From Asterionella formosa (lineage: Eukaryota): a stretch of 58,680 nt of DNA. The position numbers and the translations under genes were made by a program. The notes under the pieces are model-generated. The model did no database searches. It worked only from the letters and a program-made list of their open reading frames with translations, and was not told the DNA's origin. This document shows, piece after piece, positions 1 to 31,744 of this stretch; the first letter of the stretch is position 1; every line of letters starts with the position of its first letter. The stretch lies in NCBI GenBank assembly GCA_002256025.1, contig NKIB01013386.1:1-58680 (forward strand), read 5' to 3'.

Positions 1-214
1 ACAGAATTAACGGCTGTTCAAGTACGTGCGTATGCATGCGAATCTGCTTTTTTATGTACGGTAGCCTGGTACCTGTTACCCGGTGGCATAACAAGATGCA
101 TCTTTCGAAGGCCAACGAATTGTTATATATATCGGTACACAGGCAATATAGCCATCATACATCACAATATGTGCTATGTATGGTGAGGCTGGGCTAAGCA
201 CGAGGTACCAGGTA

Positions 215-994
215 AAACCTCTGGTTGAAAATAATTGCGTCGAATCGCCGGCACCACTGGTGTCTTTACTGTTCGCATATGAAGGATTACGTAGCCAACA
301 TACAATCTTTCTTCGTGAGAATCGGGTACTCAAAAAATGCGTTCGTTCTTAGTTACATACACTTCTGTTTCTGTAATTAAACTAATAGCAACTAAAAAAA
401 CTATTCGAAACCAATTTAACATGCATATATTAATTATGTACATGTGCATATCGCCACATCGCATTTTATATCGGCCAAAACCAAATACTTGTAGAACGAG
501 CCACTATCATAATTATAACATGAATAACAGTAAGTGTTGTTTTATGTGCTTTCTACAGTTGTTACACTTACATCAACCACACTGCCAGCTATTTTAACAG
601 TGATTTCCTCAAAACGAGCTTACCGTTGTTTTCTTCCTTCCCACCATTTTTGCAACTTTCGGGGTTGCGCATTCCATAATTGAACACAAGTCACCGTTGT
701 TCTACTGTTATATCCTACTTTGTAAGTATGTTGAGAATAAATGGTTCGAAGAAAAATGGGTTCTCATCGATCTGCATTTTGCTCGAGATAGCCATAAGTG
801 AAATCAAAAAAGCCCAAAAACATTTTTTTAATGTAGTTGCCAATTTTAAATTTATTAGATATATAAAATACATGGATCTGTAGCTTATGCGATTGCGCAT
901 GGTAGGGCAATTGAGCCGGTGATCATCGTAGGAATCAAATTGCGCCGGAGAAATTTTAACAATCACCACAATTATTTTCAACCAGAGGGGGTGG
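215..994. mobile_element. Non-autonomous TIR element (MITE-like) flanked by TA, inserted in a GGTACC site
   Basis: Left cctctggttgaaaataattg (218-237) is the reverse complement of right caattattttcaaccagagg (969-988). Flanks are ggtaccaggTA (left) and TAccagg (right). No coding capacity. Confidence 0.65.
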
Positions 995-1684
995 TACCAG
1001 GGTTAGCAGTATAATAAGTATCCTGGTAGCTAGAGCTGGAACGTGGTACCAGGTATCATAAGTGTGAATGCAATATCAAAAGATAAAATGCAAAATTATA
1101 ACTACGTGATACATTATTCTACTGTAGGCAGTAGGTTGGACAAACGGTTCAGCTGTAAATCACATTGACACCCCCCTCGCGCAAAGGGCCGGATTGAGGG
1201 AAGAATGAAGTGTGACAGAAGGGACATAGTATGGTGGGGCTAGACACCAGTGATGTTGTCAAGATGCGGGGCAAAAAGAATTCCGCCAGTTTTTTGGGTG
1301 ATGGCATCTGCTGCATTACCAGACACAGCATCTTCACGACCAATCAGATCGCTTTCTGCCCAGTCAATGAGAGCATAATGTCATATATCAATATGACAAG
1401 ATTACTTTGTGAAATGACCAGCATGGGCCATAAGCAAGACACCACGATTGTCTTCATTAAAATCGAAAAAATTATAAGTTTTGTACTACTAAATTAATTC
1501 TGAAGAAATCGGATGCAAAAGACAATGTATCAGATGTACTTACATTTTCGACATCGAACACATCGTACATACAACAAACCACGTATATACTTTGTACATT
1601 CCGTAATTATATATTATATAGTATGTATGCTTGGCATACATACTAATGGGTGCCACCAGTACTTGCATGTGTGTTTGTACAGCT

Positions 1685-2300: not shown

Positions 2301-3002
2301 TCCTCTATTGATGTTAGCAAAGATGAAGACAAGATGTACAGCGAATACAAAAACAACACCGGATCGCTTAGTGGAGGCTAGGTTATCTAAAAACTCGGCC
2401 TTCTCTAGGTCCTGGGAAAATCAACCTAAATTCCTCCAAGACCAGATCCTACGCTTGATGGCACATCTAAGCCGCGAAATACGCCACTTTGCGAATTCAA
2501 GATAAAAATTTTAGAGGACATATCATTGCGAAAGACAACTTCAATTCTAATTGTTTGATTGCAATCTGCCCTGAATTGATTGAGAAAAACGGAGCGAAAT
2601 GGATCTCGAGAAATATCGCGACATGATTCGTGAGGATGCAAGCAACAACCAACCTTAATGAGGACAAAACAGGTACAGAACAAATCATTTAATTTTGAAT
2701 TTGAAATGCTAAACTAAATATCGATTCGAATTAGTTGTGTGCTATCGGGCATGAATTGATGGAGAAAATTGAAGCGATGTGGTTGCTGGCAACTGGGTGC
2801 ATGAAGCATATCAACAATCATCCTTACCATCTATATTGTCAGCATTCAATATGAATTCTCTTATTCTTTTACATACAACTATATTTCGTATGAACTCTAA
2901 AGACATGAAATATATGAATAACATACCTGTTTTGTGAATATGTCTGGAATGGCAGCAGTGTGATGCTGAGTGTGTTGACCTCAGCTAATGAATAGGTATA
3001 AT

Positions 3003-3200
3003 GGTACCTGGGACCAGGTACCTGGGACCAGGTACCTGGTACTGGTATACAAGGCCTACCCAGGGCTATGATACATAATACCAGGTACCTGGTACCTGGT
3101 ACCTTGGGTCTTTGACGCTGCACTCAGACATACTAACAAATAGTTATACTGTATGGTACCAGGTACCACCACCAGGTACTCCTGGCTGGTAGGAACCAGG
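3003..3200. repeat. Cluster of (GGTACCW)n heptamer arrays
   Basis: For example accaggtacctggtacctggtacc at about 3080-3103. The same motif family recurs at more than 15 loci in the window. Confidence 0.9.
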
Positions 3201-7492: not shown

Positions 7493-7720
7493 AATTATGG
7501 TCTAACCAAGGGTCCTCGCGCATACAAACCACGCGACACGAAACGAAGGAGTTGAGACCGGGTACCAGGTACCAGTACAAAAACACAATGCTTATGCTAC
7601 CGGAAATCTTATTGTGTGCTGTACATGTGGAAAAATTGGTTGCACACACTAGTCTTTCCTTGGCGCAGAGGAAGTAGTCTGTAGCATAGCGCACTGACAA
7701 GGACGTTATATAGACAGCAA

Positions 7721-9364
7721 ATGTCTTCCTTCAAAGCTGCTATCCCGCGTCTCACCGTGTCGCGAGCACAACGCCTACTAGCTGCAGGTGCCCTTTCGAG
7801 TGAAGATCTCGTTCAATATTGTCATGCGCTTGTCGTGGGTGGTGAGGAACATTGGCGCCTGAATGCCTTTGTTCACGTTGTAGATCGTCTGGATTTGGTC
7901 TTCAAGGCACGAGAATTGGATGATAGAAGGAGGTTGGGGGAACGTACAGGTGCACTTCATGGAATTCCAGTCAGTGTCAAAGCCAACTTGGCAGTATCTG
8001 ACTTTAAATTGACGGCTGGGAGCAAGATCTTAGGGTCGGAGCATGCAGGAACGCCAACATGTGGCTACGATGCTCAGGTGGTCAATAAACTAAGAGCAAG
8101 TGGAGCAATAATCATAGGAAGTACAAATATGGATGAATTTGGAATGGGAAGTTTGGGTAATAACGCCGTGGTATCGAAATTTGATGGCTCGGGCGCTACT
8201 CGAAATCCAATGCCAATGATGCAACAATCTGCTTCCTACACCGATGCTGAGCTCGTCGACCTGATAAAACGACCATATGATTCCATTGTGGACGATCATG
8301 TCAAAGTTTCCGAATTTGATTTGATCTATTCATCCGGCGGCTCATCATGCGGATCTGCAGCATCTGTGGCTCATGGATCATCTTTGATTTCACTAGGTTC
8401 AGATACTGGGGGATCCGTGAGACTACCGGCAAGCTGGTGTGGTGTCGTAGGTTTCAAACCTTCGTACGGCGTGCTTTCTCGGCATGGTCTCGTTAGCTAT
8501 GCTTCATCCCTGGATACGGTAGGGATATTGGGACCCAGTGTGGATTGCGTTTCAATTGCATTTGATCAGATCAGAAACACAGAGGAGGATAACTGTCGAG
8601 ACTCGACTGGTAGTATTGTTGACGTTGGAATTCAACCAAGCACATTGAACGCCCAATTTTCATTGAAAGATATCAATATTGGAATTCCCGTTGCATTTTC
8701 AGTGGAAGAAACACCAGCATTTGTGGCTGATGCATGGTCGGCGGCTGCTGAATTGCTGGAAGCGAGAGGAGCAACGATTGTGGAAGTTTCCTCCTCCCAG
8801 ATATCACCTGAACTGATTCAAAAATCATTGGCTGCCTACTATGTTCTGGCAAGTGCGGAAGCTAGTTCCAACTTGGGTCGATACGATGGTTTGCGCTATG
8901 GCATCACTGCAAATGAAATCTCTGAGAATCCAGACATGACGATGCTGGAACGACAGTATGCAGCTACCCGATCCTTGGGTTTTGGCAAAGAAGTAGTGAG
9001 ACGAGTGTTATGTGGAACATCAGTATTGTCGACGGATCGTTTCCACACCTTTTACGAAGCAGCAGCCACACTTAGGGCCGCGGTGACGCAAGAGTTTAAT
9101 TGTTGCTTTGGTGATGTAGACGTTTTATTAACCCCGACCTCGTTGACTTTGCCACCTTTGCTTGGTCAGCCAATCAATCCCACAGAAACGTTTGCAAACG
9201 ATGCTATGACCACTCCAGTCAGTTTAGCAGGATTACCATCGATCTCGGTACCGACACGATTTTCTGATAATGGAACATTCAGGATTGGAATGCAACTCAT
9301 TGGTGGCCGTCTCTCTGAATTCAAATTGCTTCAGGTGGCAAATGCTCTCAACATTAACTTGTGA
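7721..9364 (+). CDS. gatA: Glutamyl-tRNA(Gln) amidotransferase subunit A (amidase signature family, probably organellar)
   Basis: 547-aa intronless ORF with GIPVSVKAN, GSTNMDEFGMGS, GGSSCGSAASVA and GSDTGGSVRLPASWCGVVGFKPSYG, plus the GatA-typical EASSNLGRYDGLRYG and GFGKEVVRRV. Confidence 0.93.
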   Translation: MSSFKAAIPRLTVSRAQRLLAAGALSSEDLVQYCHALVVGGEEHWRLNAFVHVVDRLDLVFKARELDDRRRLGERTGALHGIPVSVKANLAVSDFKLTAGSKILGSEHAGTPTCGYDAQVVNKLRASGAIIIGSTNMDEFGMGSLGNNAVVSKFDGSGATRNPMPMMQQSASYTDAELVDLIKRPYDSIVDDHVKVSEFDLIYSSGGSSCGSAASVAHGSSLISLGSDTGGSVRLPASWCGVVGFKPSYGVLSRHGLVSYASSLDTVGILGPSVDCVSIAFDQIRNTEEDNCRDSTGSIVDVGIQPSTLNAQFSLKDINIGIPVAFSVEETPAFVADAWSAAAELLEARGATIVEVSSSQISPELIQKSLAAYYVLASAEASSNLGRYDGLRYGITANEISENPDMTMLERQYAATRSLGFGKEVVRRVLCGTSVLSTDRFHTFYEAAATLRAAVTQEFNCCFGDVDVLLTPTSLTLPPLLGQPINPTETFANDAMTTPVSLAGLPSISVPTRFSDNGTFRIGMQLIGGRLSEFKLLQVANALNINL

Positions 9365-9544
9365 ACAAACTGGGGTGAGGTACTCGTATGCTGTCGACAA
9401 TCACCCTCGATCGCTACTATCTGGAACCTATTTCAAAAATTGCGTCACTACCTTATTAACTATTTCACACGAAATTAAGAGAATTTCACAGAGGCCATTG
9501 ACCTCGAACATTCAGCAAATTCGTTTCTTTTACTCGCAAACTGC

Positions 9545-10920
9545 TTACACCATTGTTTCTAAGGGAGGAAGGAGACTTCCACCAACTTCGTCCTTTCGCT
9601 TCCTAGCCCCTAAAACCGCAATGTCTTTAGTGCGAGAGGTATCAATCATTAAATCAACTTCCTCCGAATCAACTTCAGAATCAGTTGTCCAACCTTCAGA
9701 AATGAGGATGTGTGAATCCTGGTCATCATACGATTCGTTAAATTCCAAAAGTACATCCATTTGTGCTCCGGTTTGGTTCAGTCTATATGCGGTGGGAAGC
9801 ATGGAGTTGTATGGCGAGAGTGAGTCAGAGTCGGTATCTGCAAGAAAGTCTTTATGTTCACATGGGGTTTCGACACGGATTGGAGTCATATCGGGGCCAG
9901 AACCGGAACCACCCAATAGTGACAGATCCGGAGCCACTGTCGACTCAAATTCTTGATGGTCGTTGCGACTGCGTTGAATCTTTTTGAACCATAGGGCAGC
10001 ACCCATGGACGACAGAACAGCCACAGCCGCGAAAGAAAACAATACTATGGATCTTGTACTCAAGTTATTGCTGGATCCGGAGGCTGCGCCCAACGAGGCA
10101 CCGCCAGCACCAGTATTCACTTGTGAGGTGGTGTCAAGGTCGGGTGCGAGATAGATTGCCTTTACTAATCCTTCAACTTCTGCTACTGGGAAGAAGTCCC
10201 GAACGGAGGAACGAATGGTATAACTGATCAAGGCACTATCGGCTTTAGTTCCCACATAGACATCCATGATACCATTGACAATCGTGCATGTGTTTGCCGC
10301 GTTTACGGTGGAAGTACAAGTCACTGTTGGTAGAGCTTGGTGTGAGATGAAATTTCCCTCTTATTGTAGCGAAACAGTGTGGCATCGAACTTACTATCTT
10401 TGATGGGTGTGTCCACAGGCAGGGAGTCAACAGCCGTGATAACAATCGCGTCTGTAGCCAAGATAAGTCGCCGCAATCTTGCGCCGCAATTCAGAAACTT
10501 TGCGGCCAATGCATCATTTATGGCATACTCCAACGACGACTGCACAGCTGATGAAGAATAACTAGGGCTATTCTCTATGGAGTACGTAAAAGAAACTTCT
10601 TCCACCTGTTCATAATTGAAGTTTTTGGTGCAACTCTTGAGAGTTGCATCGGAATCATTCGCCGGAGCCATGCTGGGCGAGGTGATTGGCATGGTAAGAC
10701 CGTCTTCGTCCGCTAACGCTTGTGCCAAGGCAAAGATGTCCTGCAAGTTTCCATCATAACTTAACTTTTCATCGCCGCGTGCGATAGCATCTGCTCGTTC
10801 CTTCACTGTCTCGATAGCAGCCGCACTAATTTTTCTGGACAAGGAATAAAGTGCCCTATCCTGTGTTCCTGTCACCACCAGCGGAAGCACAAGAAGGAAT
10901 GATATCATAGCTTGCATCAT
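9545..10920 (-). CDS. Type I single-pass membrane protein with signal peptide, two exons (10920-10395, 10323-9545), about 434 aa, function unknown
   Basis: A 71-nt GTAAGT...CAACAG intron at 10394-10324 joins the two ORFs in frame (..PIKD-M-TCTS..). N-terminal hydrophobic signal, RRL motif, one TM helix (IVLFSFAAVAVLSSMGAALWF) followed by KKIQR, acidic tail. Confidence 0.8.
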
Positions 10921-11360
10921 CTTTGAGGTGCTCTGTGAATGGACGCTGAGCCAAATGAAAACGGTCCCGTTTTGACCCTACTTGTGAGACTTGCTGTGCT
11001 TGCACTCGGAGTGGAAGTAACAATAGGTGAGCTGACGGTATTTGCATGCCCTCGAGGAGAAAATTAAATATATATTAGGATATGGATGATTTTCTATGAT
11101 GGCTAATACCGGTATGCTTGTTTCTCAACAACGACAAGCAATTTCAAATAAGGAGCCAGGTATGGATTTATGATGGCATCAGTACCTGTAGTGCCCATCA
11201 TAGTAAGTATATATGGTGATGTCCAAGAAAGAGACAACGACAGTCCTGTGTAGTATGGGTACGAGGTACCAGGTACCAAGTCGATAAACAAATGTCGTAG
11301 GAGTAACATTCTATGCAGGAAAGCCGTTGCGACTTCAAATTTGAATTTTACCTCCGGGTT

Positions 11361-11603
11361 GGGCCTGTCTTTTCTTGGCCGAGGAAGTATGTACAGAAAA
11401 ATGTGGAACATATATAGTTTCTGTACGTAAATCTGTGGGAGATTTCGTCCACATTTTTTATAACTGCCAGTTCTGTCAGCAGCGGTTTTTCCTTGCTTCC
11501 GCCGTGATTCATTTTTGCGGCCCCTGCTTTCCGGAAAAATGTGGATAATTTTCAACACAGAAATGTTCAGAAACTGCGTTGAATTTTGTACCACTGCAGG
11601 CCT
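11361..11603. mobile_element. Short MITE-like element with internal inverted repeats (family C)
   Basis: aatctgtgggagatttcgtccacattttt (about 11430) is inverted relative to aaaaatgtggataattttcaacacagaaat (about 11535). A related segment lies at about 13990-14025. The ggcctg/caggcc ends are only weakly defined. Confidence 0.4.
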
Positions 11604-12573
11604 ACATAAATAAAAGATTCACTAGGAATGTCTAGTAGCGGGTACTCCTGCTAGGTACCACCAGTACCTGGTACAGGTACCTTTGTGGAGAGTTCCTGAG
11701 AGTTGAGGATATGTTACCTGGTACCTGGTGCTGGTGCTGGTGCTGTGTTGTCAAAGTGTGCTCGTCATCTACATACTGGTAGCTATGACTAACAGTCAAC
11801 TGAGCACATGATTTCATTCTGCTATAATGAGCTGGACAGTATAGCAGACTATTTGGAAGACCAATAGTTTGAATCGAACAATCAATGGTTATAAACTTAT
11901 GATCAATAAGTATGAGATAGACATAGATCTATGAATTTATGTTCTGACAAATGAAAACAGCATTTGGAAAAATAGTTTGTTTGATTACTCAAAAATCTAA
12001 CTACCCGTATACTTCATTGTCCTGGACCCCCCCCTATGGTTGCTGGACCTCACTGTACATTTTTCTCGAGGCGGAACCAAACACCCAATAATTTTCTTGT
12101 CGTAGACAAAGTAACGTACTATGATTCTTTTTGTCCTCGTAGGCACTAGTATATAATTATTTAGCTACCATTTTGCGATTCTTTTGTACATACAAAACAC
12201 AAGAGACGACAGGTAGTGGCTGTCAGCAGCTGGAGAATCCTTCATGATGTTGTCGCAACCTTGACCATGACGAAAATACGAATTATCTCCACGAAAATAG
12301 AGAACGACGCTTTGCTACTTGCTACCTGTATTAAGAACGACATGGAAAATACAATCGTAAAAGAAGTAAAGTAATAACACTAATAATGACAACGAAAATT
12401 GAGATCGCCGATAACAACATGAAGTCGCGTTTTCCTTGCGAGGTGAAGAACTCTCTCATTTTTCACAAGACGGAAATAATTGTCATGTTAATACATCTAA
12501 GAAAAATGTGCGCTATCCTGTAGAACTAAAGAAATTTACTTAGGTCCTTCTGAAAAAGGATAAAACATCATCG

Positions 12574-13420
12574 ATGTATTTAACAGGAGTGTATACATCA
12601 CATGAAATTGCAGCACTTTCAGATCAGGTTGTTGTTCGATATCCATTTGCAGAAGAGGATTTTTTCGCAATTGAATTGACTGGCATTCCTCCACATGTTG
12701 CACACCTTGCTGCCATAGAGCAAATGAGAGGTGACTTTCTCCGACTTGTTCCATCATTTCTTAGTGATTTTGAGAAAATGTTCAATGATCGAACTTATGC
12801 TGATGTCAATTCAGAAAATCGAATGGAGGCCATCATGGAAAAAATTATTGGGCAAAAGCTCCTTGGGTTGACTGAAGGACTAGACCAAGCAGCAACAAGG
12901 AGTTATGCTGCATCAAACAACGCAACAACTCCAAACAACCAGAAATCATCCTCATGATGGATTATTCTGGAGAGTTCCAGTTGGATGGCAGTTCCCGCTT
13001 TGTACTGTACTATCTGTTGCTTACTGTTTATGGCATATGGGAAATGACAGGAATAAAATTGGTTCATTAAAGTTTTTAGACAATCGTGATGTCACTTTTG
13101 AGACTGTCACAAAGGCGAATGCTGATGGTGCCAATGGTGAAGAGCAAGTTGTTGTCTGTAAAGGATGCAAAAGTGGGATCAAGTATTTAGATGAGTTCAG
13201 GAAGATAATGAAAAGATTGGATGGCAGAGCAACAATCGAGGCTTCCTGCAACCTCCAATTACAAGAGAAAATGTCCTTGTTGCTCTTGAGCAATGCAAGG
13301 ACTGTCTTGGCATTTCACCTGTGACTGCTCAAGGGAGGAAGAGACGTGTTGCAAGTCTGAAGTGGAGCACTGCTTTTAGACAATGCCTACAGAGAAAAAT
13401 GTTGAAAGAAGTTGTGGCAC
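12574..13420 (+). pseudogene. CryptonS-like (tyrosine-recombinase transposon) C-terminal remnant
   Basis: LTGIPPHV, then after a frame break FWRVPVGWQFP..AYCLWHMGND..IGSLKFL, YLDEFRKIMKRLD and RKRRVASLKWST. This order resembles the C-terminal region of stramenopile Cryptons as I recall it. The YR catalytic domain is not visible. Confidence 0.55.
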
Positions 13421-14094
13421 TAATACTGGAAATTGTGTTCCATACATTGGTGATCCAATGGTTATTGCCATTTTGAAAGATGGTGAAGCATCAGCAAACT
13501 TGCAAGAAGTCTAAATGTTCATTCGTCATTTTCTATCTATTTAATTAAATAATAACCATATACGAGTACATTTGCATAAACTTTATCACTAGATTGGTGC
13601 TCTACCCTGCTTTAAATCATTCAGCCAAATACTAGCTAGTAGGAGTAACACTCTGGCTATCTATGACCGTATCAGCCACCATTGCTCTGTACATTACCGT
13701 TAATACAGAATCAGTGTGGTTGTTTTGATACTGCAAGCTGTACTACTATAAGATTTGATTGACAATTTATCAGTATAAAGTACAACTGGTAGTATATTTG
13801 GTGCAATACCTCATCGACCACTGATGGTACCTGGTACCAGCTACCAGTAGCGCTGAATCCTGTTGTATAAAGACTTAAAATTTCGTGTACAGGTATGCCG
13901 TGTATGTTTGATGTACGTATGTAGAATGTCGTACAGTATTCGACATGATCAACCATAGAGGACTACTTAGACTAACATAAACCCGGCATTTCAAATCTGT
14001 GGGGAAAATAATCCACATTTTTCCGTCCAGTTGAGGCTGATACAGCATACTGGAATGATTAAACCTTAGTATTTAGTGGAGGTTGAAGAAAGTA

Positions 14095-14563
14095 CCGGTA
14101 AATATACCGGTATGTACTGCAAAGCAGTGCGACCACCATTGCACCTGTAATTTCATTTTTGAAATACCATACCGGTGCTGTTCTAGAATTTTACCAGTAC
14201 ATTGGGGGTCTAGCTTGTCAGTATTCTGCTATGTTGGCATACCAGCAGTATACTGTCTTTCGAAAAATATAGACTATGCCTCAGTACTATAGCTGCAGTA
14301 AAATATCATCGAGGAAATGGTAATTCTGATTTTTTCTATAGTAGTAATGCCGCTTTTTTCTGTTTTGGCTACTTGCTTATTAATAGCCCAAGCATGAAAA
14401 TGAATTTTGCTCTCAGATGCTATACAAGACTTGCCGGATTTTCATTAAGATTCCTAAATTGCAGTATACTGGCAAGCTAGTACTAGAACAGTATACTTAT
14501 AAAATTCTAGAACAGTATGGTATTTGGAAAATGAAATGACAGTATACTGGTATACTGATACTG
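14095..14563. mobile_element. MITE with long imperfect inverted repeats (CAGTATCAGTA-type ends, related to the hAT end at 27480-27627)
   Basis: 14147-14230 is the reverse complement of 14460-14545 (aaataccata..ctgttctagaatttt..ctagcttg(t/c)cagtat). The right arm is also similar to 27490-27627. Confidence 0.7.
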
Positions 14564-14564
14564 A

Positions 14565-14905
14565 GATGAAGGAATGGCTTATGGTAGTTGTTTGAGCACA
14601 TTGTCTTTGATCTGAGTTTGTGAGTTTCGATTCCCGCAATCTTTTTGAGAAGCAATTGTTGGGTTCGACTCCCACACACCTTACTTTCCCGCATGGTCTT
14701 GCCTGGTGTGCAAGAAATAGTGGGTTCCCCCTTACAAGCAACTTGTGCCGCCTTCCTAGGTGGTCAGAGTTTCCCCTAACACTGCGGTTAAGATGATCAT
14801 CTTTCGTGAAGTGTGGTTGGGGACTCACCTACCCTAGTAACAACACTACTAGGGAAGCACAGGTCTTGTCGGCAGGCAGCACAATGAATACTTGCCTAGA
14901 AAAAA
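14565..14905 (+). mobile_element. tRNA-derived SINE-like element, long copy with structured 3' domain
   Basis: Degenerate A box (tggcttatgg), B-box-like agtttcgattcc, second B box ggttcgactcc (14662-14672). The body tcttgcctggtgtgcaagaaatagtgggtt is shared with 37962-38135. Hairpins follow downstream, then an A-rich end. Confidence 0.6.
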
Positions 14906-16063
14906 GGGAATAGGAATGGGCTATAAAACAGATCATTCTATATGAGTCTGGAGCAAAGTTTCAGCAACATGGAAATCGGAAACATAGAAATTATAATAGG
15001 AAGAAACTTACTGCAAACCCTACAGTGGGCCTACCTACGTGGCGCCTCTGATGTGCGGTTCATCCTTCCCACCATGATGGGTAACTCAATTCTTAACATT
15101 ACTATGATGGACATTAAACACACCGAATTAAGCGATTCGAATAAGGATTTTGGCGATATATCCCCAATTCGAAAGGCGGAAGAAAATCGTGCCCCGAGGT
15201 TGAAACACATAGAGATTCCTGATTCCTGATTCCTGATCTGGTTATGAGAGTGTCAATGTATTTTCGTCTCTTTTTACCTGATTAGGAACATGTACCACAA
15301 TCCACTAGATGATTGAGTCAAGGACACATGGTTAAATATCGCGTGTAAAATGCCACAGTTGAGAGAGGAACTTTCAGGAGAAGTTCTCTCTAACCTATTA
15401 ATTGGACTCTAGAAGACGATCAGACCTACAGGCCAAATCAATAAATGATTGACAAGACAATTACAGATATAACCGCAAAATCAAGGAATATTAAAGAAGC
15501 AAACTAGATATGATCTATTTATGATTAACAGGATCATTCTGTAAGCAGTCTTCGATCAAACAGCATCTGGCCTAAGTTGAGACAGGCCAAGATTAAGACA
15601 AATGTGTATTTAGGAAGAGGATATAGTTTATTCTCAGTTTAAGTTGGGAACACAAATGAATCTCGCCTCCGAAGATCACCTCTATTTTGAAACATGCATG
15701 AGCTTGGAAGTTTCAAAATTATAAATTCAAATTTACATTTACATTAAGCTCACTCTTTTATAAAAACAACTAGTAGCAAACAAACAAAGTAAAACAAACA
15801 AATTGTGTAGAAACATTTTTCTAGGAACTTTTACTGCGTGAGAGCTACAGATACGTAGCATCTACCAACTAGTTATTGAGCCCAACACGCTCGTAGCTAA
15901 ATTGTTCTTACACAACAAGGTTCGTTACACGACAAGGTTGTGAGAGTCAGGCAAGAGATCGCGTTCTACTTGTAGCCACTTACATAGTAGTCACGCGAGA
16001 TAGCAAGCACTGCATCAGTGCCTCTGCTATTCAAGGTAACAACACAGACGTATTCTTCGTGAA

Positions 16064-17700
16064 GTGTGTCGTTCTAAGTTTCTTGAGGGTGCTGTTCGAA
16101 CACAACATCTTGAACTAAGAACTTCAACAAGATACAACTCACCACGATCATACTTAACGACGATGACGCAAGCAACAAAGTTTGGACGCGTCACGCCCGA
16201 GGGGTTACGATACTCTGGTGGTGCACTCACCAGACATTTCAAGACTGAAATGTCTCCAATTTTCTCGCCCTATCAGCTAGGTACAGGAGATACCAGAGAG
16301 GTTTCCGGACTATTTGAGTACTGCACCAATTACCGCAAGAAGCTCAACAAGGGTCCTTCTGGCAATTCAGTAGTGAACTTCACCCTCTATGAGCTGGAGC
16401 GTGCAATCCGCAAGGAAGCCGCTCTCGTAGGCATTGATACGTTTTTGTATGCACCTGATTCTGAAGGTGTCATGTGGAATGTGTCTACGAATCATTCTTG
16501 CATCAAATACAAACTGGTCAAGAGGTACGTGGATACCTGCCTAGGTCCTGTACCAGAGCCAGTGTACCAGTTCGACAACCCTACAGCCGAAACTGAGGCA
16601 TCTGTACTAGCCAGGGCCATGGTCTGGGATGACCAAGCTAGGGAAGACTCTACGCACCTATGGAGGTTGATTGAGTCTCATGTAGATCCTAAGCTACTTA
16701 GTGGCTTATACGAACGCCTTGATGACTATGGTGATAGGGGTCCTGGACTCCTTCTTTGGGTAGCTTTGATAAATGAGGTTACCTCAGGGTCACCTCAATG
16801 TCTGGACAGCGTAGTCGAACGCTTTCTAAACCTGCCCCTGTCAAACTATCCTGGTGAGAACTTACGTTTTTTATTCAATGATGTACTAACTACGTATAAC
16901 TTGCTTAAACATGTTAATGCAGTCCCTGCTAGCTACTGTGTCAAGCATGGTTATTGCTAAATTTCTATGCTGCAGTGTTGAGGAATTTCGCACTCCTTTC
17001 TATTCCAAGTCTGTTGAGATTGATGATGAGGAGAGGTACTTGCTTGGGAAAGACATCATAAAGAATTCTTCTTTATGTGTTAAATATTTTTGTGAGTTGG
17101 CTATGACCAGCTACAAGCGCCTAGTTGACTATGACAGCTGGCCACCTATCAAGACACTTCCCAAGAGAAAGCAGTCAGATGGTTTGCCTTATGCCTACTA
17201 CCAGGCATTTGCAGAGGAACTAACCCTGCTATGCAAGAATAGTACCAACGGAAATTTGGACAACAAGGATTTCTCTGATGTCACTTGCTATCAGTGTGGC
17301 AAAAAGGGGCATGTAAAGCCTAGTTGTCCTGAAAAATCTACTACTACTTATAGGCCTACTGATCCAAGAAAGCAAAAAAAAGTTGCTGAAAAGGTTGATA
17401 CCAAGCGTTTTTGGAAGGAGATACCGCCCAAGGTTGGGGATCCTAAAAATATGCACAAGGATGGTAAGACCTGGTACTGGTGCTCCAAGTGTCGTGGTGG
17501 TGAAGGTCGCTGGACTACTACACATAACACTGCCACACACACTGGCCAGACTACTAGTGCTCCTCAAGTTACTGCGGCTGTGGCTAATCAAGCCCATACT
17601 GCCACTACGAAGGAAGAAGCAACTGACAATACTCTTGTCTTTACTCCTTTTGGCTACATAGCTGCTTGTAGTGAAGAAAATTTGGAATGGACAAATTTCG
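16064..17700 (+). pseudogene. Ty1/copia (CoDi-like) gag, frameshifted, pol missing
   Basis: Zinc knuckle CYQCGKKGHVKPSC followed by WKEIPPKVGDP..KDGKTWYWCSKC..RWTTTH. The LPLSNYPGENL region resembles gag. Removing one GCTA of the GCTAGCTA at 16928-16935 fuses the two ORFs. Possible degenerate tRNA-iMet-type PBS agttattgagccc at 15871-15883. Confidence 0.8.
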
Positions 17701-18606
17701 TTGATGCCCTTAATCAAGAACAATGCATGGCAAGGCAATCCAGGACACCATGTGGTGTCTTACCTCAAACTGTCCAAAATCGTTACCAGCCACAATTCAA
17801 CATTAATGATGATTGCTTGAGTCCGTTCAGTTTGTCATGGTCAATACAGAGATGTTTAATCATCTATCTATTTACATACGGCAGTGAAAATCAAATTTAC
17901 TTAATGGTAAGTATGTAAAACATATATAATATGCCGCTACAAATATTTGTATAATGAATTGGAGGTCCTATATATGGATACGATATGAAAACGATATCAG
18001 GTACCTGCAAATTGCGCATTTTGCTGAACTAAGGATTTAGCTGTCTTTATCCTCCCGCGCCACTTGATTTATCAACATAACCGGCGCCATGAGAAGCGCT
18101 ATCAGTGAAGGCATCAAACGGCGTGGGAGCACACAATTTGGTTCATATCTGACCTAGTTCGTGATGAGCATGGCAAATATATGCCTACATGACCAACCAA
18201 TTCACGTGCAAAAGCTCTTGAGCTTGACATTGGGCTATCTGGAGTTAGAAATGTACAGGAATGCCTCACTTATGGCGGTCCTATAGGAGTTACAATTAAG
18301 CTACTACAACGCTTTCACAGCCATCGCTGTACAATGGATTTCGATTTCAAGTTCATCATGAATGAATGAACTCAACCACAACAACAATGTGATTGGGTGG
18401 TGAAATTATTAAAATGTATACTTAAAATGTATACATATATGAATGTTGTTTATGTACAAAATTTTACATATGGTAAAAACATTTGTTATACTTGTAGCTA
18501 CGGTAGCTACACAATGATTCAGGATGCACCCAGTCATATGTGCATAGCATTTTACACTGGTACCAGGTACCAGGTACCGGAGTACTCCATCACCGGGTAC
18601 CTGGTA

Positions 18607-19031
18607 CCAGTTAAAAAGTGTAAGCCACCGTTGTTTTACTCCATCTTCCGACTGAAAATATTTAAGTAATTTATCAATCGAAACCTGATGCAATTACAAA
18701 GAGTATGTTCGACGATGCACTCTACTCAACGAATAAGTAATCAGTTTCGATTCAGTGTATAAAGCCATGAAGATCTATTTTTTTCAAAGTCATTAAGATT
18801 GTTGCATAGCGGTGGCTTACAGTGCATATTTTTTTATCATACATGAGAATCTTTTCCCCCCAAACCGTGATTACTTTTACTCCGTACACAAAGAAACAAT
18901 ACAAGTATGGAAGTATTTATTCGCTATATAAATCTGAACAACTCCTTCATGACAATAATTAGCGTATCTTGCAAACTAAGTTCAAACCGTGCGTTTACTC
19001 CGTGTAGCGGTGGCATACAGTTTTTAACTGG
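18607..19031. mobile_element. 425-bp MITE nested in the previous element, TA duplication, inserted in tggTAcca
   Basis: TIR ccagttaaaaagtgtaagccaccg / cggtggcatacagtttttaactgg (22 of 24 positions match). TA at 18605-18606 and 19032-19033. Confidence 0.85.
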
Positions 19032-19319
19032 TACCATGATCACACAAAGTGTAGAAGAGTTTGCCGGTCAAATAAAGGACCAGCATTTTTTGAAACCCTG
19101 ATACAGTACAATTCTATTTTGAGATTCTCAACATCACGCTTACACCCAGCCGCCAGCTTTCCCTTGCTCGTGAGTTTCTTCGCATATATTTATAGAAAAT
19201 AGTTGTTATTTCAAATTATCCTAACTATTACCAGTAGGGAATCTTGTACGGTACTTTATATCCAAAACGAAGGATGTGCAGTTTTTCACTTTGGCCAGAA
19301 AAGACCAATTTTCGAGACT

Positions 19320-19460
19320 TGAGGAAATTCCATGTATTTCCTGAAATTTCCTTAAGTCTCCTGAAAGTCATAGGCATTTCTTGAAAGTCATAGTCATTTC
19401 CTGAAATTCATAGGAGCTTGCTGAAAGTCCTACTTATGCTTTACTGAAAGTCATAGTCAC
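19320..19460 (+). repeat. About 20-bp minisatellite (consensus near cctgaaagtcataggcattt), 6-7 copies
   Basis: ctgaaa(g/t)tc recurs at about 20-nt spacing. Confidence 0.75.
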
Positions 19461-21014
19461 ATGCTGTGTGTTCTCGCTTTTGCAATTAGAAGAATTCCGC
19501 TTTTTATTTCGCGGAATCGTGCTTTGAATAGAAGATGTTCTATTTATATGATAAAATATGTCACTGTCCGGTAACACATTAACTGTTTCAGGAAAATGAC
19601 CGCAACTTGCAGTTCCAACAACCAGATGCGGTCATTTTGCTTAAATAAACAATTTAATATGGGATAAAGACAGCCAAATCCTTAGTTCAGCAAAATTACT
19701 GCAACTTGTTGGTACCTGCCTTGGCTATCATGCAAAGGTTGACATAACACTACATACCAGTACAACACATGCTTTTACTTAAGCAAATACTGCCCAAATG
19801 TAGAGCTGTGCAGCCCATTTTCAGATAGTACTATTGTGAGTAGAACATGCATTCGTTGAGCATTGTCTAAGCATAGTATTGTACCGGGTAATAGCATTTA
19901 GGTATGACATTATTTTGCAGCGAGTACCAGTATTTCATGAAACCAACTTCACTGATTTACTGATGGTTTCGATGATTGTTTATATTTTTCGATTTTCATT
20001 TTCGTAAGCAAAAAGAGTCATCTGAAATCTAGTTAAGGAATTTTTTTATCATTGATAAAAATTACTATTGATTTGCTACATTTTTAGTCCAAAACATTTA
20101 TCACGAATTCCCCAGACAAACTTATTATGCATTTGGACACTTTTGTCCAAAAAGTGTAGGGGACTTTTTCGGTCGATTCAGCAGTCAATGACACTCACAA
20201 ACAGAGAAGAAACAACGAAGCGATCTACTAGTAACATACAAGCAACTCAACATCAAACATACATAACAACAGAACCCATGAGGAAAAGACTCAGACAAAC
20301 AATCACGAAGCTAGGAACACAAGTCACTTGGCAACAAATACTCACAAGGCTAGTAATTTTCTTTATTTTGCTTAGCTTTTAAAAGCCAGGAAACGTATTA
20401 AGATGCACAACAAAGTTTGCATCATTTCTGCCTTGATATTGCTTGAGTTACAATCCTTATTCTTCCATATGTGGGTATTAGCTAGTACATATAAGCACAC
20501 AGCCAGTTATTCCTGACTACACTATAGTGAGATTCCATCACTAGTCGGAAATGTTAAATTATTGGTTGGTGCATACAACCAATGCAGGTACTACTCATGT
20601 ATTCATTTCCACCAGCCAGCATGATCTGAAAATTGGTTGTTTCTTTCAAGGTTATCGCAGCTACTATCGTAACTGGTCGCTCATAAAGATAGGGAATGTG
20701 TAATTGAGCATTGCGCATGCAGGCAAGTCACACATGCTACCTAAGATAAGAAGGAGTTTCTAGCAATTTATTTTGCTGGGGAATCAAATCAATACTGGAT
20801 TGGAACAGGATTCATAGATTTGCACGAACTAAAATGGATAAACACATTTCATTCGCTGATTTTCGCTACATTCCTGGAAACTGGATGTCATGAATGCACA
20901 TGACACGAGGAACTGGCTTTGATATCTAGTTGTAATACATACATCTAGACATACAAGAAACAAAACAAAGCAAACAATGCCTCACAGTGGGAAAAAACAT
21001 TCTACATTCACCTA

Positions 21015-22172
21015 CTACTGTGAATTTGAACCTCGCCTACTTGTTGGCTTCAGCTCTTCCCTACATAGGGGACAATTGGTTCGACGTGCTCTCCGCCTTC
21101 GACGATCCTGAGGGTCCCACCGACCTCCTATCCACCCAGCTAGACATTTTTTATGAAAAATATGACCACATTTGGTTCGAACCATTGCTTCATCTTCAAC
21201 AACTTCTTGAGCCTCCACATCGTGCTCAGTAACTTCAAAATCATTCATACAAATACAGCACTCTTTCACTGTACTACTAAAACTATTTTCTCTTTCCTCT
21301 TCATTGTCGCCTGATTGACTTACTGTCAGTGGCACAAGTTTCAGCCCTCCATGCGAGATGAGTTGTACCGCTTCCAGTGAATCCATAAGCTCTTGGGCGG
21401 TCACACTAGTATTACGGCCCAAAAAGTCCTCTTCTTCCAGTCTTTCCTGTAATTGCTGCAGTGTCCCATTCTCATCACTGGCCCGTCGTAAAATGTAAAG
21501 GTAGATACAAGGAAGGAACAAAAGTGGCAAAATCAAGGAGAGTGTAAAGAATTCCAGGAGTGTGACATAGACTTGGAGTGCTTGGAAAACGGATGGACAT
21601 GTTTGCTCACACGTATTCTTGCCAAGATCAGTAGTAAAAGACTTGGTGGAATTCTCCATCTTATCGATTTCTTGCGACATGGAATGATCGCCAAAGTCCT
21701 CCTTGCAAGTTTGCACCAATGTTACTCCTCCATATACATACAACACGCAAAATGTATGAAACAGCTGATCATAAAGCCTCACCCTCGCCGGCCGAATAGG
21801 TCCATCGCGCTCTCGACTATATTGAAATAGGTAGGATCGCACATGGGCGTGATAAGGTGCATATAGCACAAAGAACAACGAAGTTATTGCGTACCCATGG
21901 AGTGGATGCGAGCAGCTGGCCCTCACATCGGCGATGAAGGAAGCATACAGAACCCAAAGCAAGCCCAAGGATACCAAGGTTCCCAGTGGCACAATTGGCC
22001 AAGTAATTGTCGAAAACAAGCATCGCAGCCGTCGTGTCATATTGATGATGGTGTCGTCGACTGTAAGCGTATCTTCGTCCGGTTCGTCCGGAACATCAGT
22101 TTGGGTTCCGCCATAGTCCACCTCGGAGCCTCCGCCAGTCAAGGAATCAGTCTCTGCTGCTGCGCCCAACAT
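21015..22172 (-). CDS. Multi-pass membrane RING-H2 E3 ubiquitin ligase (about 385 aa from the first in-frame ATG)
   Basis: C-terminal C3H2C3: CCICMNDF...KCGHIFHKKCLAGW...CPLC. About four hydrophobic segments upstream. First ATG at 22172; the ORF track starts at a GTG. Confidence 0.88.
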   Translation of the reverse strand: MLGAAAETDSLTGGGSEVDYGGTQTDVPDEPDEDTLTVDDTIINMTRRLRCLFSTITWPIVPLGTLVSLGLLWVLYASFIADVRASCSHPLHGYAITSLFFVLYAPYHAHVRSYLFQYSRERDGPIRPARVRLYDQLFHTFCVLYVYGGVTLVQTCKEDFGDHSMSQEIDKMENSTKSFTTDLGKNTCEQTCPSVFQALQVYVTLLEFFTLSLILPLLFLPCIYLYILRRASDENGTLQQLQERLEEEDFLGRNTSVTAQELMDSLEAVQLISHGGLKLVPLTVSQSGDNEEERENSFSSTVKECCICMNDFEVTEHDVEAQEVVEDEAMVRTKCGHIFHKKCLAGWIGGRWDPQDRRRRRARRTNCPLCREELKPTSRRGSNSQ

Positions 22173-22960
22173 GAGGGATGCGGCTGTAGCCCACAAAATC
22201 TCTGAATTCACAGTGTGGATTTGCAGTTGATAGAACTGTGTAAATGAGCCGAGTTCTCGAAAGGTGGAACCGAGATGCTGGAGATGAATACTGATGATGA
22301 GTGGATTGAACGACCACAGACCTTCTTGGTTTGTATCTTGTCGTCACTTTAGACTTTTCTGATCGAGTTTTCTCCCATACGAAGGTATCGATAGTAATGG
22401 TGTGATCGCAGGTCGTTGACTTCCGTTTATTATAATAAAAGGGTTGGAGCGAGAGAACCGGTAATAATAAATGAGAAAATGTTATGTGTGCATTAGCACA
22501 CTGTTAAAATTCGACTGTGCGTGTGGAGAAATGATGGGTCTAACTGGGGCGCGACGCGCCCCATTGGTTTCTAGTGAGAACAGATAGGTTCGGACGGGTG
22601 ACGGCATGGTTGGTTACCACGTACGACGAACAAGGTACCTGGTACCGGTAATGCTGGTTCATTATGGTACCAGGTACCAGGTACCCACCCTGCTGGCGCT
22701 GATCGCGTTTAATTTGACAGGTAACCAAGGTGGTGCTTGCCTCCCTTATGGATTGCTGGCCATGCTTCCATGTGAGATGGGGAGAGTTATAATATGTGGA
22801 GATGATGGATGTCCCCTCTCATCAAAGGGAGCAGGAAGGGTGTGCTGATATGCAGTTGTGATGGCAATTCCCCCTCCAGTTATCATCTTGCCACCCACCA
22901 TGGTGACAGGTTCGATTCCTGCTTTCTCCACCTGTTTTTTCATGTAGTCCCTAGGGTCCT

Positions 22961-26907: not shown

Positions 26908-27627
26908 TTAATCTACTTGATCATCATCCATCTCTAATATGATAGTCCTACCCATTGCTTTACTGCCCACAACCTCATTCCAGTAATGTCTATTCTTTTT
27001 TAGAAATAGGATCGCTTTAAACACAGCAGGTGATGTTGACTTCCTCACACAAGTAAGAATGTGCTTGGCAATGGAAAAGAGACTTTCACAACTAACAGAA
27101 GTACCAAGGAGGAGGTCAAGACAAATGTAATTTTCATTGATGGACCTGACAACATGCTTGCGCCATTTAATTCTCTTCTGAATCAAATCTGCATAGTTTT
27201 GTTGGTGTTCTGAAGAAACTGCACCATCTGAATTTTCAAGACATTCTTCAGAGGAATCATTACTCATGCCATCGGCAGGTATAGCATGTGTCTTCCTAAG
27301 TTTTGCAACTTTATTGCTCTCTTTGGCATTCAGCTCTTCACCTTTCATTACCTTCATGACAGCCAACTCAAACAGTTTGTCAGAAGTACCAAGGAGGAGG
27401 TCAAGACAAATATAATTTCTATTGTATGCCGATTTTTCTATTTTGGTGTTGCTTGATAGCCCAAGCATTGAACGGAATTTCGGTTTCCAATGCTACAAGA
27501 CATGCCGGATTTTCTGTAGATTCCTACTTAGCTGTATACTGGCAAGCTAGACCATTATACTGGCAAAATTTTGGAACAGTATGGTATTTGGAATATATAA
27601 TTACAGTATGCTGGAATACTGATACTG
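26908..27627 (-). mobile_element. Internally deleted hAT transposon: C-terminal dimerisation domain plus one terminus
   Basis: LLLGTSVSCESLFSIAKHILTCVRKSTSPAVFKAILFLKKN matches the hAT dimerisation pattern (TS..ER.FS....L...R..L.P....A.LFL..N). A CAGTATCAGTA terminus lies at 27627 on the minus strand. Confidence 0.75.
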
Positions 27628-28881: not shown

Positions 28882-30684
28882 TCACTTTCGGCGGAGTCCA
28901 AGCATTTTGGATAGTTCACTAACCTTCTCCAAGGTCATCTCTTTCGCATGTTTGACAAACCCATGAAATTGTCGTTGTGTCTCGCTTTTCAAGATAATTG
29001 GATTTGCCACTTGCCAAATTTGTACTCCCGGATCAAGCGCTAACGCCAGACCTTCTTGTACTTTAATTGCGAGTGCTGCGGAGACAAATGATTGATTCAT
29101 CAGGACATGATGCTTCGCTGCGGCTTCGAAAATGTAGCTCAAATAGGTTCCCAAGTGTTCCATAAAATAGTCCTTGTCGGAAGCTTTGATGGTCAATGCT
29201 TCAATCTTATCAATGTATAGCTCTTCGTCCTTGGCAGTATCTTGACCTGCCAGTCTCCTGTTGGAGTCGTCGATCATGAGACGACCAGCTCGTCGGCCAT
29301 CTTTGCGAATAAAGGCTGTGAGCACGTTTATAATCAGTTGATGTTCTACAACACTGTATTCCTTGACAATACCCACATCCAGGAGTACAAACTTCTTCGT
29401 TGTTGGATTCACAAAGACATTGCCTTGAAATGAAATCAATATGGAAGCACAGTGAGAATCGATTTTTAAATTATTAGTCCCTGAAAAAACCAAAGCATTG
29501 CACTCACCAGGATGCAAATCTCCGTGCAAAAAGTTGTCGAAAAAAATCATCTTACAAACGGCCCGAATCCCCACAACGCAAAGCTTAGTTAGTGTTTCTT
29601 GGTCATCGTGATTGAGTCGAGCATACTGCAAGACTGGAATACCAGCACAAAAGGATTCGACCAATACGTCCTTCGTCGTTCTGAAGCCCGGAATGAGTTT
29701 CGGAAAAACAACATCTTTATCGTCCTTAAAATTGACATTGAATCGATCCAAGTTTTCTGCTTCTGTTCTCAAGTCCAGTTGTAGCTTTAACATGCCTGCA
29801 AATTCTTCCACGGCCCCTTGAAGATTAAGAAACTTAACTTTTCCCAATTTAGACCCTAAGTAGGCTGCCAGTCTCATGAGGTCCAAGTCTGTGTCTATGT
29901 CCTGACGGACATTTGGATGCATAATCTTGACTGCTACCTCTTCTTTCGTATCCAATAAAATGCCTTTATAGACTTGTCCAATACAACCAGATCCTAGCAA
30001 TTCCTTAAGCTCGATCCGATTTCCCCAGTCTTTGCCAAAGGCTTCTTCCATCTTCGCTGATGTATGCTTCCACGCATGCGGCGACGTATTGTCCTGGAGT
30101 CGACTAAAAATGGAACAAAATTCGTGGCCAAATAAATCAGGTCGACTTCCTGCCCACTGCATGAGTTTTATGACTGCAGCACCGCTCCATTCGACAGACG
30201 CCAAGCACATGTTGAGGTACCACAGAAACAGTCCACTGGGTTCAGCTTCAGCTGCGGCCCGGAGCACAAACTCATGAGCATCCACATCCTTATCTTTGCG
30301 AAGCATGGATTGAATGGGATAGAGCAACGCGATAGGAGCAAGGGCGAAGGATAATTTGACCAAGCGAGCAAACATGCGAAGGGCAATCAGGACCTTTCGT
30401 TTGAGTAGTGTCCAACGTGATTGTCCCTTTGACAAACGAAGGAGAGGTTCCAATGAAACCGGAATAGCTTCTTCTGCTTTTGTTACAACGAGTCGGTTCG
30501 AATCGTTGTATATTACCGCAGAAGCGCCAGCGAGGAAACCATGCGCTTGCGGAGTACCAGAAACGAAATGACGAGTGGATTGTCGACCAATGACTTTTGA
30601 TTTCGAGACGAAGGAACGCCGCAACAGCTGCGTCTTCAATAGCCTTGGACTTTTGACAAGGGCACTACACAAAGTTTGTTGCAT
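28882..30684 (-). CDS. ABC1/UbiB (ADCK-like) atypical protein kinase, two exons (30684-29508, 29423-28882), about 572 aa
   Basis: IKLMQWAGSRPDLF, LGSGCIGQVYKG, VAVKIMHP, HGDLHPG|N, LLDVGI. An 84-nt GTGAGT...TTCAAG intron (29507-29424) splits the catalytic loop. Arg/Ser-rich transit-peptide-like N-terminus. Confidence 0.92.
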   Translation of the reverse strand: MQQTLCSALVKSPRLLKTQLLRRSFVSKSKVIGRQSTRHFVSGTPQAHGFLAGASAVIYNDSNRLVVTKAEEAIPVSLEPLLRLSKGQSRWTLLKRKVLIALRMFARLVKLSFALAPIALLYPIQSMLRKDKDVDAHEFVLRAAAEAEPSGLFLWYLNMCLASVEWSGAAVIKLMQWAGSRPDLFGHEFCSIFSRLQDNTSPHAWKHTSAKMEEAFGKDWGNRIELKELLGSGCIGQVYKGILLDTKEEVAVKIMHPNVRQDIDTDLDLMRLAAYLGSKLGKVKFLNLQGAVEEFAGMLKLQLDLRTEAENLDRFNVNFKDDKDVVFPKLIPGFRTTKDVLVESFCAGIPVLQYARLNHDDQETLTKLCVVGIRAVCKMIFFDNFLHGDLHPGECNALVFSGTNNLKIDSHCASILISFQGNVFVNPTTKKFVLLDVGIVKEYSVVEHQLIINVLTAFIRKDGRRAGRLMIDDSNRRLAGQDTAKDEELYIDKIEALTIKASDKDYFMEHLGTYLSYIFEAAAKHHVLMNQSFVSAALAIKVQEGLALALDPGVQIWQVANPIILKSETQRQFHGFVKHAKEMTLEKVSELSKMLGLRRK

Positions 30685-31744
30685 TGTCGCGTTCGCGCTG
30701 TGATGGAAGAATTGGTTAATAGGAACGCCCTATGCAACGAGCCTCCACAGCACAATGACATAGTGAATCCGCCATTTATACTTGCGTGCTTTCGTTGTTG
30801 GGAAGCGAATCTCGATTCAGAATCTTGCGAGGAACGCTCAATATCATGATGTAGGGGCTGGTTGCACCCGCTACCGGTAAGTACATCGGGTAGCCGCTCG
30901 TACCTTGTGGTATGTTTGAAATTTAGTGTCACCAAATATTTGATTTGCATACATCAAAGAAGACTCATCATTTTCTTAATTAAATGTTAACTATTATACC
31001 GGTAGATGAGGGAAACAGGGGGATGTGCACGACGCGCGCATTGAAACAAAGGGAAAAGGAGCAAGCGAAATTTGAGGTGGAGGCCACGTTAGCTATGATG
31101 GGAGCTAATTCTGTCTTGCCAAAAAATGAAGATGAGGTTCAATGGCTAGTGAATGACAGTAATCCATGCAAGAGAAGGTCATGGAAGAGTCGATCAGCCA
31201 ACAAACAACCATGTAAGGGTTTCAAAGCAGAAAGCTCACAATTCTTCGAATCAGCTTTCAGCAAAGCAACATCACTGAATCTAAGCTGTGCAAAAATTTA
31301 TAATCAATAGATAAAACTGACCCTCCCTATGTCCCACCCATGGCTGAAGTGCAAACTCGACTGTAGCTACAGGGACCTGGAGGGGTGAAATGAATCAAAC
31401 CACTTAGAACCAAAATCGAAAATCCCAACTGTTTGTTAAAAGATTAACTATTGAGGAAAAGCGAGAGAAATGTTTTCAAAAAAGGCAGTCAAACAAGTCG
31501 GTAATTGAATTGAAGTAGCTTCGTTATTTCCCTTCAGGTTCCTGCATTTCAACCCTAGATTAGAGGTATGGTTCAAAAATTAATATTAAGTCAGAGTGGT
31601 CAAACACACACTTTGTGCGAGTAAAATGTAAATGTATATTACTAAACAGAGCTTTCACCACTATACACATGACAAGATCTCCATGTGCACCAATATACCG
31701 GTTGGATACCAGGTACCCATGAGTATATTTGATTTTGAACAGCC

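Follow-up and report, generated by a model that had tools for sequence, protein, structure and literature searches.

Miniature inverted-repeat elements stacked in palindromic GGTACCW arrays of Asterionella formosa, with a candidate CWG-duplicating, Harbinger-like family

Transposons that home to microsatellites are known from plants. Micron is one such element, and MuTAnT, which is said to be Mutator-like, is reportedly another. The Mutator-like SaTar MULEs (Mutator-like elements) and TAFTA, also from plants, target microsatellites and stack end to end, as portrayed in passages of PMC5907723, and Ac-mMITEs appear in an excerpt of PMC8449440 as microsatellite-targeting and Mutator-like. A second set of precedents comes from the PIF/Harbinger-ISL2EU-Spy (PHIS) superfamily. 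Its NuwaI group has CWG target site duplications (TSDs), is reported only from animals and has terminal inverted repeats (TIRs) that usually start with GGG, according to the part of PMC4482050 that treats it, and the zebrafish element Harbinger3_DR has a palindromic target consensus centred on CCWGG, as given in a section of PMC3016246. Tc1/mariner elements, in turn, leave 3′ overhangs on excision that are repaired by end joining, with scars derived from the terminal bases (in extracts of PMC8151067). Here we describe a stack of miniature inverted-repeat transposable elements, or MITEs, in a 58,680-nt stretch of Asterionella formosa DNA (contig NKIB01013386.1, positions 1 to 58,680 of the forward strand; hereafter the window). 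The stack lies in palindromic (GGTACCW)n arrays, and we lean towards reading its principal family, E1, as a CWG-type, Harbinger-like element that splits its target site upon insertion.

The enrichment of GGTACC in the window and its association with the elements are real and far exceed chance. We counted 60 copies, against a mean of 6.06 and a maximum of 14 in 100 dinucleotide-preserving shuffles, and nearly all of them sit within short arrays of 7-bp period, (GGTACCW)n, or degenerate variants of these, which bears out the (GGTACCW)n arrays reported in a first-pass annotation of this sequence. Of 106 CCWGG sites in the window, 27 carry TA on each side, whereas unrelated DNA totalling 72 kb has 2 such sites among 102. 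A census of the spacers between TA dinucleotides was dominated by CCWGG (27 versus 0.3 expected under a first-order Markov model), CCGG (16 versus 0.5) and CCAG/CTGG (14 versus 1.25), followed by CAGG/CCTG (8 versus 1.2); the remaining TA-SSSS-TA types occurred at most three times each. The motif TACCGGTA was found 16 times, where ∼0.5 occurrences were expected, and 12 of the 16 fall outside arrays. In 79.5 kb of control DNA, made up of unrelated (non-family) loci from the metagenome scan described below, we found two TACCGGTA and two TACCWGGTA. The isolated TACCGGTA palindromic octamers of the window lie in unrelated contexts (4526, 6140, 11107, 14093, 14105, 25156, 27900, 30872, 30997, 39858, 46725 and 55979).

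The first-pass annotation had placed three TIR elements between GGTACC sites, at 215-994, 18004-19712 and 18607-19031. The GGTACC flanks and the TIRs are indeed present, but the element at 18004-19712 proved to be composite. Its outer ends form a 35-nt inverted repeat with 97% matches and adjoin GGTACC at 18000-18005 and 19711-19716. Because an additional right-hand TIR (19590-19609, one mismatch to the family core) and an additional left-hand TIR (19622-19641) lie inside it, we read it as two MITEs of the same family, E1a and E1b, arranged end to end, and no longer as one single element (Table 1). Other copies of the family part from the window sequence just before 19627, and the left tip of E1b falls inside the degenerate junction between the two members. 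The CC..GG termini proposed for five of the six ends hold up, the left tip of E3, at the start of the window, being degenerate as had been stated. E1a contains no open reading frame (ORF) of ≥90 aa with a Pfam match. Contigs of four metagenome runs placed on window positions 1-20000 gave a rough measure of copy number: the summed contig depth lay between 1e5 and 3.7e5 over 18-20 kb, as against ∼700-1000 at the single-copy part at 8-11.3 kb, and depth over E1a was ∼100-400 times that of the single-copy part. This contrast, rough as it is, points to high-copy families at 18-20 kb. The left flank of E1a is itself a repeat: 16040-17918 holds a pair of long, overlapping ORFs that have a CCHC zinc knuckle and resemble retroelement gag, and this region is repeated ∼100-fold by summed contig depth.

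Both CAGGTACCTG and GGTACC-W-GGTACC are palindromes, and the length of a TSD can therefore not be determined from a single copy. At E1, a duplication could measure 2, 4 or 6 bp and still yield an identical empty site, and an odd-length CWG duplication also fits E1 and E3. Of the earlier description of the elements as "bounded by TA", the presence of TA stands, but TA is merely one of several TSD readings that the palindrome allows. For 11 end pairs of the E1 family, taken from the window and from metagenome contigs, we therefore compared the three bases that precede CAAGTTGC with the three that follow GCAACTTG, all read on one strand. The middle base of the triplet was identical in 9 of the 11 pairs (L001, L015a, L015b, L052, L059, L080, L091, L043 and the outer ends in the window; p = 0.033 against 0.5) and differed in L006 and L019. 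A perfect CWG repeat was present in three pairs (L015a, L052 and L091), and six more matched at two of three positions. Read inward, W was T, T, A, T, A, A, T in one arm and A, A, T, A, T, T, T in the other, that is, opposite in six of seven copies. It flips from arm to arm even among closely related copies, and the run consensus at this position was A in X1, A in X3 and T in X7. Such flipping, together with the direct repeat, is more in keeping with a duplication derived from the target than with W being the terminal base of the TIR. By contrast, TA/TA was perfect in only three of the 11 pairs (L059, L015b and the outer ends in the window), whereas ∼8 of 11 would be expected at a divergence of 8%, an estimate of our own (P of three or fewer = 0.003).

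Judged from these sequence comparisons, the E1 element is probably CAAGTTGC...GCAACTTG, duplicates CWG and has GGTAC/CWG/GTACC as its target. The 3-bp CWG duplication thus has moderate support in this family, and TA on both sides, found in 3 of 11 pairs, describes it poorly. Two claims of the first-pass annotation are accordingly not supported for E1: TA is probably not what is duplicated, and insertion probably does not turn one GGTACC into two, since the CC and GG tips are better read as target sequence and the site as split. The element proper would begin at CAAGTTGC, and it would integrate through a 3-bp staggered cut, C/CWG/G, at the centre of a heptamer unit. Its target would be GGTAC-CWG-GTACC, with TACCGGTA-like sites used as well, and it would work in the manner of the CWG branch of PIF/Harbinger (PHIS). 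The flanking GGTACC would be old target sequence, with insertion splitting or consuming a site and building none, and perfect heptamer runs would expand chiefly by slippage. Like CWG-type PHIS elements, E1 is best read as having a 3-bp CWG duplication within a longer palindromic target centred on CCWGG. Its GGTACCWGGTACC has ACCWGGT in common with the target consensus of Harbinger3_DR in the portion of PMC3016246 that reports it. Unlike NuwaI, described from animals only, the host here appears to be algal, and the target is itself the unit of a tandem repeat.

Several observations weigh against this assignment. Counting E1a and E1b as separate pairs brings the agreement of W to 8 of 12 pairs (p = 0.19). 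E1b shows CCAACAA at both ends, in inverted orientation, and CCGGCAAG is the inward reading at two ends from a longer subfamily, that of L100 and the one at 777 in L091; these two look element-encoded and not target-derived. The three pairs with intact TA/TA (L059, L015b and the outer ends in the window) also have to be explained, the C and G of CWG are uninformative in a palindromic site, and the sample comprises 11 pairs on contigs from more than one strain or species. The TIRs of the family start with CAAG (CAAGTTGC or GCAAGTTGC), unlike the GGG of NuwaI. No empty site was recovered. The sole contig that bridges the locus, from X1, runs from 17994 to 19719 but has 22 different letters where the window has the E1 stack with its junctions; its depth is single-copy-like, and its flanks are themselves repeats. 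We rejected it as a clean empty site on account of the 22 letters and the repeated flanks, and it may represent either a different allele or a paralogous copy of the host repeat. None of the contig joints listed skips E2 or E3, which carries no weight either way. Lastly, a Pfam search of the 99 window ORFs of ≥90 aa (E ≤ 0.01) found no transposase of any DNA-transposon superfamily that matches these TIRs, and the window holds no two-ORF PHIS partner (DDE plus Myb/SANT). The sole transposase-related match was a weak hAT dimerisation domain (E = 0.006) in an ORF at 26911-27492 on the minus strand, which may be a hAT remnant.

Copies elsewhere bear on the target preference. A metagenome scan with the inner TIR returned at least 118 loci, and ∼20 hold E1-family members among the matches listed; in the alignment, the short form of the family measures ∼110 bp. 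GGTACC is missing on one side in L001, L015, L052 and L059 and on both sides in L006, L019 and L043, and several copies are flanked by an array on one side only. The L019 copy lies in 818 bp without a single GGTACC, and L043, a relative, has ends that lack both TA and GGTACC; GGTACC is therefore not part of the element proper. Still, GGTA adjoins 10 of the 19 E1-family ends that could be scored, where the window background is 0.063 per TA end (p = 5e-8), and in 8 of 11 copies the triplet comes straight after GGTAC. Loose contig ends told the same story, the consensus of 200 (X1), 94 (X3) and 88 (X7) of them having GGTACC directly outside the TIR. The proposed preference of the elements for GGTACC is thus supported. 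With E1 ends at GGTA, and E2 and E3 flanked by array units, all three families insert into microsatellites, and the arrays seem to be landing pads shared by unrelated elements from different superfamilies. In L019, L043 and L006, which lie outside arrays, no direct repeat of 8-11 bp was seen. Two of the loci, L059 and L095, represent one locus in two metagenome assemblies, with alleles 88.7% identical over 513 bp. Three of the six indels of ≥4 bp between them are GGTACC-type units (7, 13 and 7 bp), which indicates that the arrays are highly unstable.

The E2 element differs from E1 in the behaviour of W. It inserted into a heptamer array internal to E1a and is flanked by TA at 18605-18606 and 19032-19033 and by GGTACC on both sides. 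Its ends read CAG and CTG, so that their W bases are complementary; this is expected of a base within the TIR, to which we therefore assign W. TSDs of 2, 4, 6 or 8 bp are all compatible with the flanks (TGGTACCA on each side), and a second E2 copy, on an X1 contig, is likewise preceded by GGTACCTGGTACC. With W inside the TIR an even-length duplication becomes more likely, and the TSD of E2 is probably an even-length palindrome (TA up to 8 bp), its superfamily probably being other than that of E1; E2 may be a TA-type element. E3 has GGTACC at 204-209 and 993-998 and a degenerate left tip, and admits two equally good readings: TA/TA at 213-214 and 995-996 (element 215-994), or CAG/CAG at 209-211 and 998-1000 (element 212-997). 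Another E3 copy, in X1, reads GGTAC+TC+CCTCTGG. Although TA/TA is present at both E2 and E3, it is uninformative owing to the palindrome. A TA duplication, as in Tc1/mariner and Stowaway-type MITEs, is compatible with both, and one E3 copy begins with CTCCCTC after TA, which we take to resemble Stowaway tips. A TA-anchored scan of the whole window (51 pairs with ≥17/24 matches) yielded no further clean element like E1 to E3, so the window sample is limited to three elements. Viral contigs scanned with the three TIRs gave 0, 6 and 0 matches, the six being presumably due to chance.

Table 1. Coordinates of the elements, junctions and related features in the window
Feature	Coordinates	Strand	Description
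Left junction	18000..18007		GGTAC (18000-18004) followed by CTG (18005-18007), a candidate copy of a 3-bp TSD; the first-pass TSD was TA at 18002-18003
E1a	18008..19609	+	Non-autonomous, 1.6 kb; belongs to the CAAGTTGCGGTMATTTTGC-TIR family; left arm 18018-18052
Heptamer array within E1a	18559..18608		Landing site of E2; TA-delimited units CCAGG, CCAGG, CCGGAG, then CCTGG
E1a/E1b junction	19610..19626		Degenerate; CAG, TT, CCAACAA, CCAGA
E1b body and right TIR	19627..19708	+	Short MITE of ∼97 bp, same family as E1a; alignment with 9 metagenome copies, TIR matches
Right junction	19709..19716		TTG (19709-19711), a candidate TSD copy matching the left CTG at 2/3, followed by GTACC (19712-19716); the first-pass TSD was TA at 19713-19714
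E2	18607..19031	+	425-bp MITE unrelated to E1; TIRs CCAGTTAAAAAGTGTAAGCCACCG and CCAGTTAAAAACTGTATGCCACCG, 22/24 matched
E3	212..997	+	Third unrelated MITE; exact 20-nt TIR core CCTCTGGTTGAAAATAATTG at 218-237 and 969-988
CCGGTG block	14165..14176		6-bp block in an arm of a further TIR element, at a TA; absent from two paralogous arms

With regard to the microsatellite-targeting elements of plants, the locus shares with SaTar and its relatives the insertion into microsatellites, the clusters formed by adjacent insertion, the end-to-end stacks and the flanking repeats that vary between alleles. Those elements mostly use (TA)n or other short repeats and have TSDs of 8-11 bp elsewhere, whereas the target here is a 7-bp palindromic unit. 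They are also Mutator-like, whereas the elements described here would be PIF/Harbinger-like and possibly in part Tc1/mariner-like, and E2 is nested by way of an array internal to its host element.

The first-pass annotation had assigned all three families to the Tc1/mariner type, with TA duplicated within GGTACC and with TA-CC(W)GG-TA excision scars that build the arrays and multiply the landing pads. As a whole we find this doubtful. Perfect TA/TA at E2, E3, the outer E1 ends in the window, L059 and L015b speaks for it, as do the complementary W of E2, the CCAACAA at both ends of E1b and the CCGGCAAG at two ends of the longer subfamily. The spacer census, with CCWGG, CCGG and CCAG/CTGG at its top, is in keeping with it as well, and so is the end joining of Tc1/mariner excision overhangs described in the pertinent lines of PMC8151067. 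The E1 family stands against it: only 3 of its 11 pairs keep TA at both ends, and its W repeats directly in 9 of the 11 and switches between closely related copies. Unlike Tc1/mariner elements, whose TSD is TA, E1 is poorly described by such a duplication, and a self-rebuilding TA mechanism is unlikely for this family, though it may hold for E2 and E3. An autonomous Tc1/mariner partner, whose discovery the first-pass annotation had proposed, was not found among the window ORFs, as no Tc1/mariner domain was detected in the 99 ORFs of ≥90 aa (E ≤ 0.01).

The scars themselves fared somewhat better, in that certain copies or alleles carry, at TA sites, blocks starting with CC and ending with GG+TA that their counterparts lack. 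The L095 allele carries CCAGGTACCGG+TA at a TA that is left plain in L059 and in eight other copies. At one TA of the MITE consensus, both alleles show CCGG+TA together with additional units, where L015 differs in its series of units; the CCGGTA of L059 and that of L095 sit at two TAs 4 bp apart, and their deletion leaves identical sequences. A comparable block at 14165-14176 (Table 1) emerged from gapped BLAST against window positions 14450-14542 and 27520-27606. All-against-all BLAST among paralogs gave 19 indels of ≥4 bp, the informative ones being those between L059 and L095. CCWGCWGG, the expected trace of a retained double CWG scar, was not enriched (6 in the window versus 5 in the control). 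Among the copies and alleles compared, we saw no locus occupied by an element in one strain and carrying a scar in another. Most of the variable TA-anchored blocks lie within ∼100 bp of an array (L059/L095, L015 and the window at 14.1 kb), where local templated repair could produce them. They are a hint compatible with end-joined scars of TA elements with CC...GG tips, and also with local template switching, which fits because of this very proximity.

How the arrays grow can be judged from W. If units were independent excision scars, W should vary at random, but neighbouring perfect units agreed at this base in 4 of 5 cases in the window and in 13 of 15 in the algal loci, 17 of 20 altogether. 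Bacterial arrays behave alike, with the same W in 171 of 195 adjacent units among the matches listed, so the perfect runs are best explained by slippage. Growth of the arrays through cycles of insertion and excision, as first proposed, is therefore not supported, and excision scars would at best be a process that seeds them. Chains that mix units of 6, 7 and 8 bp remain in favour of scars, since they made up 16 of 27 algal but 4 of 126 bacterial chains among the matches listed, a contrast that is biased because the bacterial loci were selected for at least three perfect units. Bacterial GGTACCW runs often adjoin other heptamer arrays, such as GATACCT, GGCACCT and GGGTTTC. Among the matches listed, TACCGGTA was absent from 108 of 110 bacterial loci.

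A further possibility, which the uniform W also favours, is that the arrays are ordinary slippage microsatellites without any causal link to the elements, that insertions gather there because palindromic or open DNA attracts them in general or because they do no harm there and are kept, and that the blocks arise by template switching. GGTACCW runs of at least three units in at least 110 bacterial or metagenome-assembled genome (MAG) contigs (L125-L234, several from one MAG) demonstrate that the motif can expand without these elements. A 14-bp higher-order repeat at 3003-3039 speaks for this account as well, the de novo blocks lie within ∼100 bp of arrays, and the same arrays are used by at least two unrelated TIR families, probably of distinct superfamilies. 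Yet the E1 junctions are base-exact, and GGTAC before the triplet in 8 of 11 copies speaks for sequence-specific cutting, not for a regional preference. Isolated TACCGGTA octamers also occur where the nearest GGTACC is hundreds of bases away (4526, 25156 and 27900), and TA-delimited units of 6, 7 and 8 bp are rare in bacterial arrays. We regard this account as improbable overall, even though its slippage component is retained in the CWG reading of E1.

Elements of the two kinds might also be coupled: excisions of E2-like TA elements with CC...GG tips would leave TA-CC(W)GG-TA pads that both E1 and TA elements prefer, and slippage would multiply these pads to arrays. We offer this as a tentative and rather unlikely scheme; if true, the most over-represented hexamer of the genome would be a landing system both made and targeted by transposons. 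Finally, it is highly implausible that the TIR has GGTACC or CAGGTACC as its outer tip, with the true duplication further out, for although palindromic GGTACC stands at both ends of all three window elements and CAGGTACC is common to both ends of 18004-19712, none of the three has a direct repeat beyond GGTACC, and the copies that lack it on one side (L001, L015, L052 and L059) or both (L006, L019 and L043) contradict this, which also answers the concern, raised at the outset, that copies might always carry GGTACC within the TIR.

These observations carry a point of method: where a target is palindromic, TSD and superfamily can be decided only by a non-palindromic position compared across many copies. 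If the CWG reading of E1 is true, a CWG-duplicating PIF/Harbinger-like lineage exists outside animals and targets a tandem 7-bp repeat, a natural case of highly site-specific integration into harmless DNA. Were the TA-anchored blocks excision scars, transposon activity would be tied to the birth of microsatellites, which would explain the ten-fold excess of the hexamer. In the open-access literature that we searched, we found no account of GGTACC-type arrays, of arrays grown from scars or of such MITEs in diatoms, nor of an extended GGTACC target preference of Tc1/mariner elements.

The surrounding locus is a repeat-rich region of an intron-poor eukaryotic genome. Long intron-free ORFs encode an amidase (7685-9361), an ABC1 kinase (28885-30729) and a RING protein (21018-22343). 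Runs that match the window are mainly labelled as algal or freshwater metagenomes, which, along with the intron-free ORFs, suggests a freshwater alga as host. Further TIR pairs, for example CGGAAAAATGTGGATAATTTTC and CTGTAATTTCATTTT, delimit 11532-14025, 14145-14542, 5070-7490 and 43115-45008; their ends lack GGTACC and show no obvious TA duplication, and they are likely to belong to other families. Tandem repeats were present at 49291-50384 (period 191 or 378), 45827-46340 (152), 56082-56449 (92) and 43603-43774 (78 bp).

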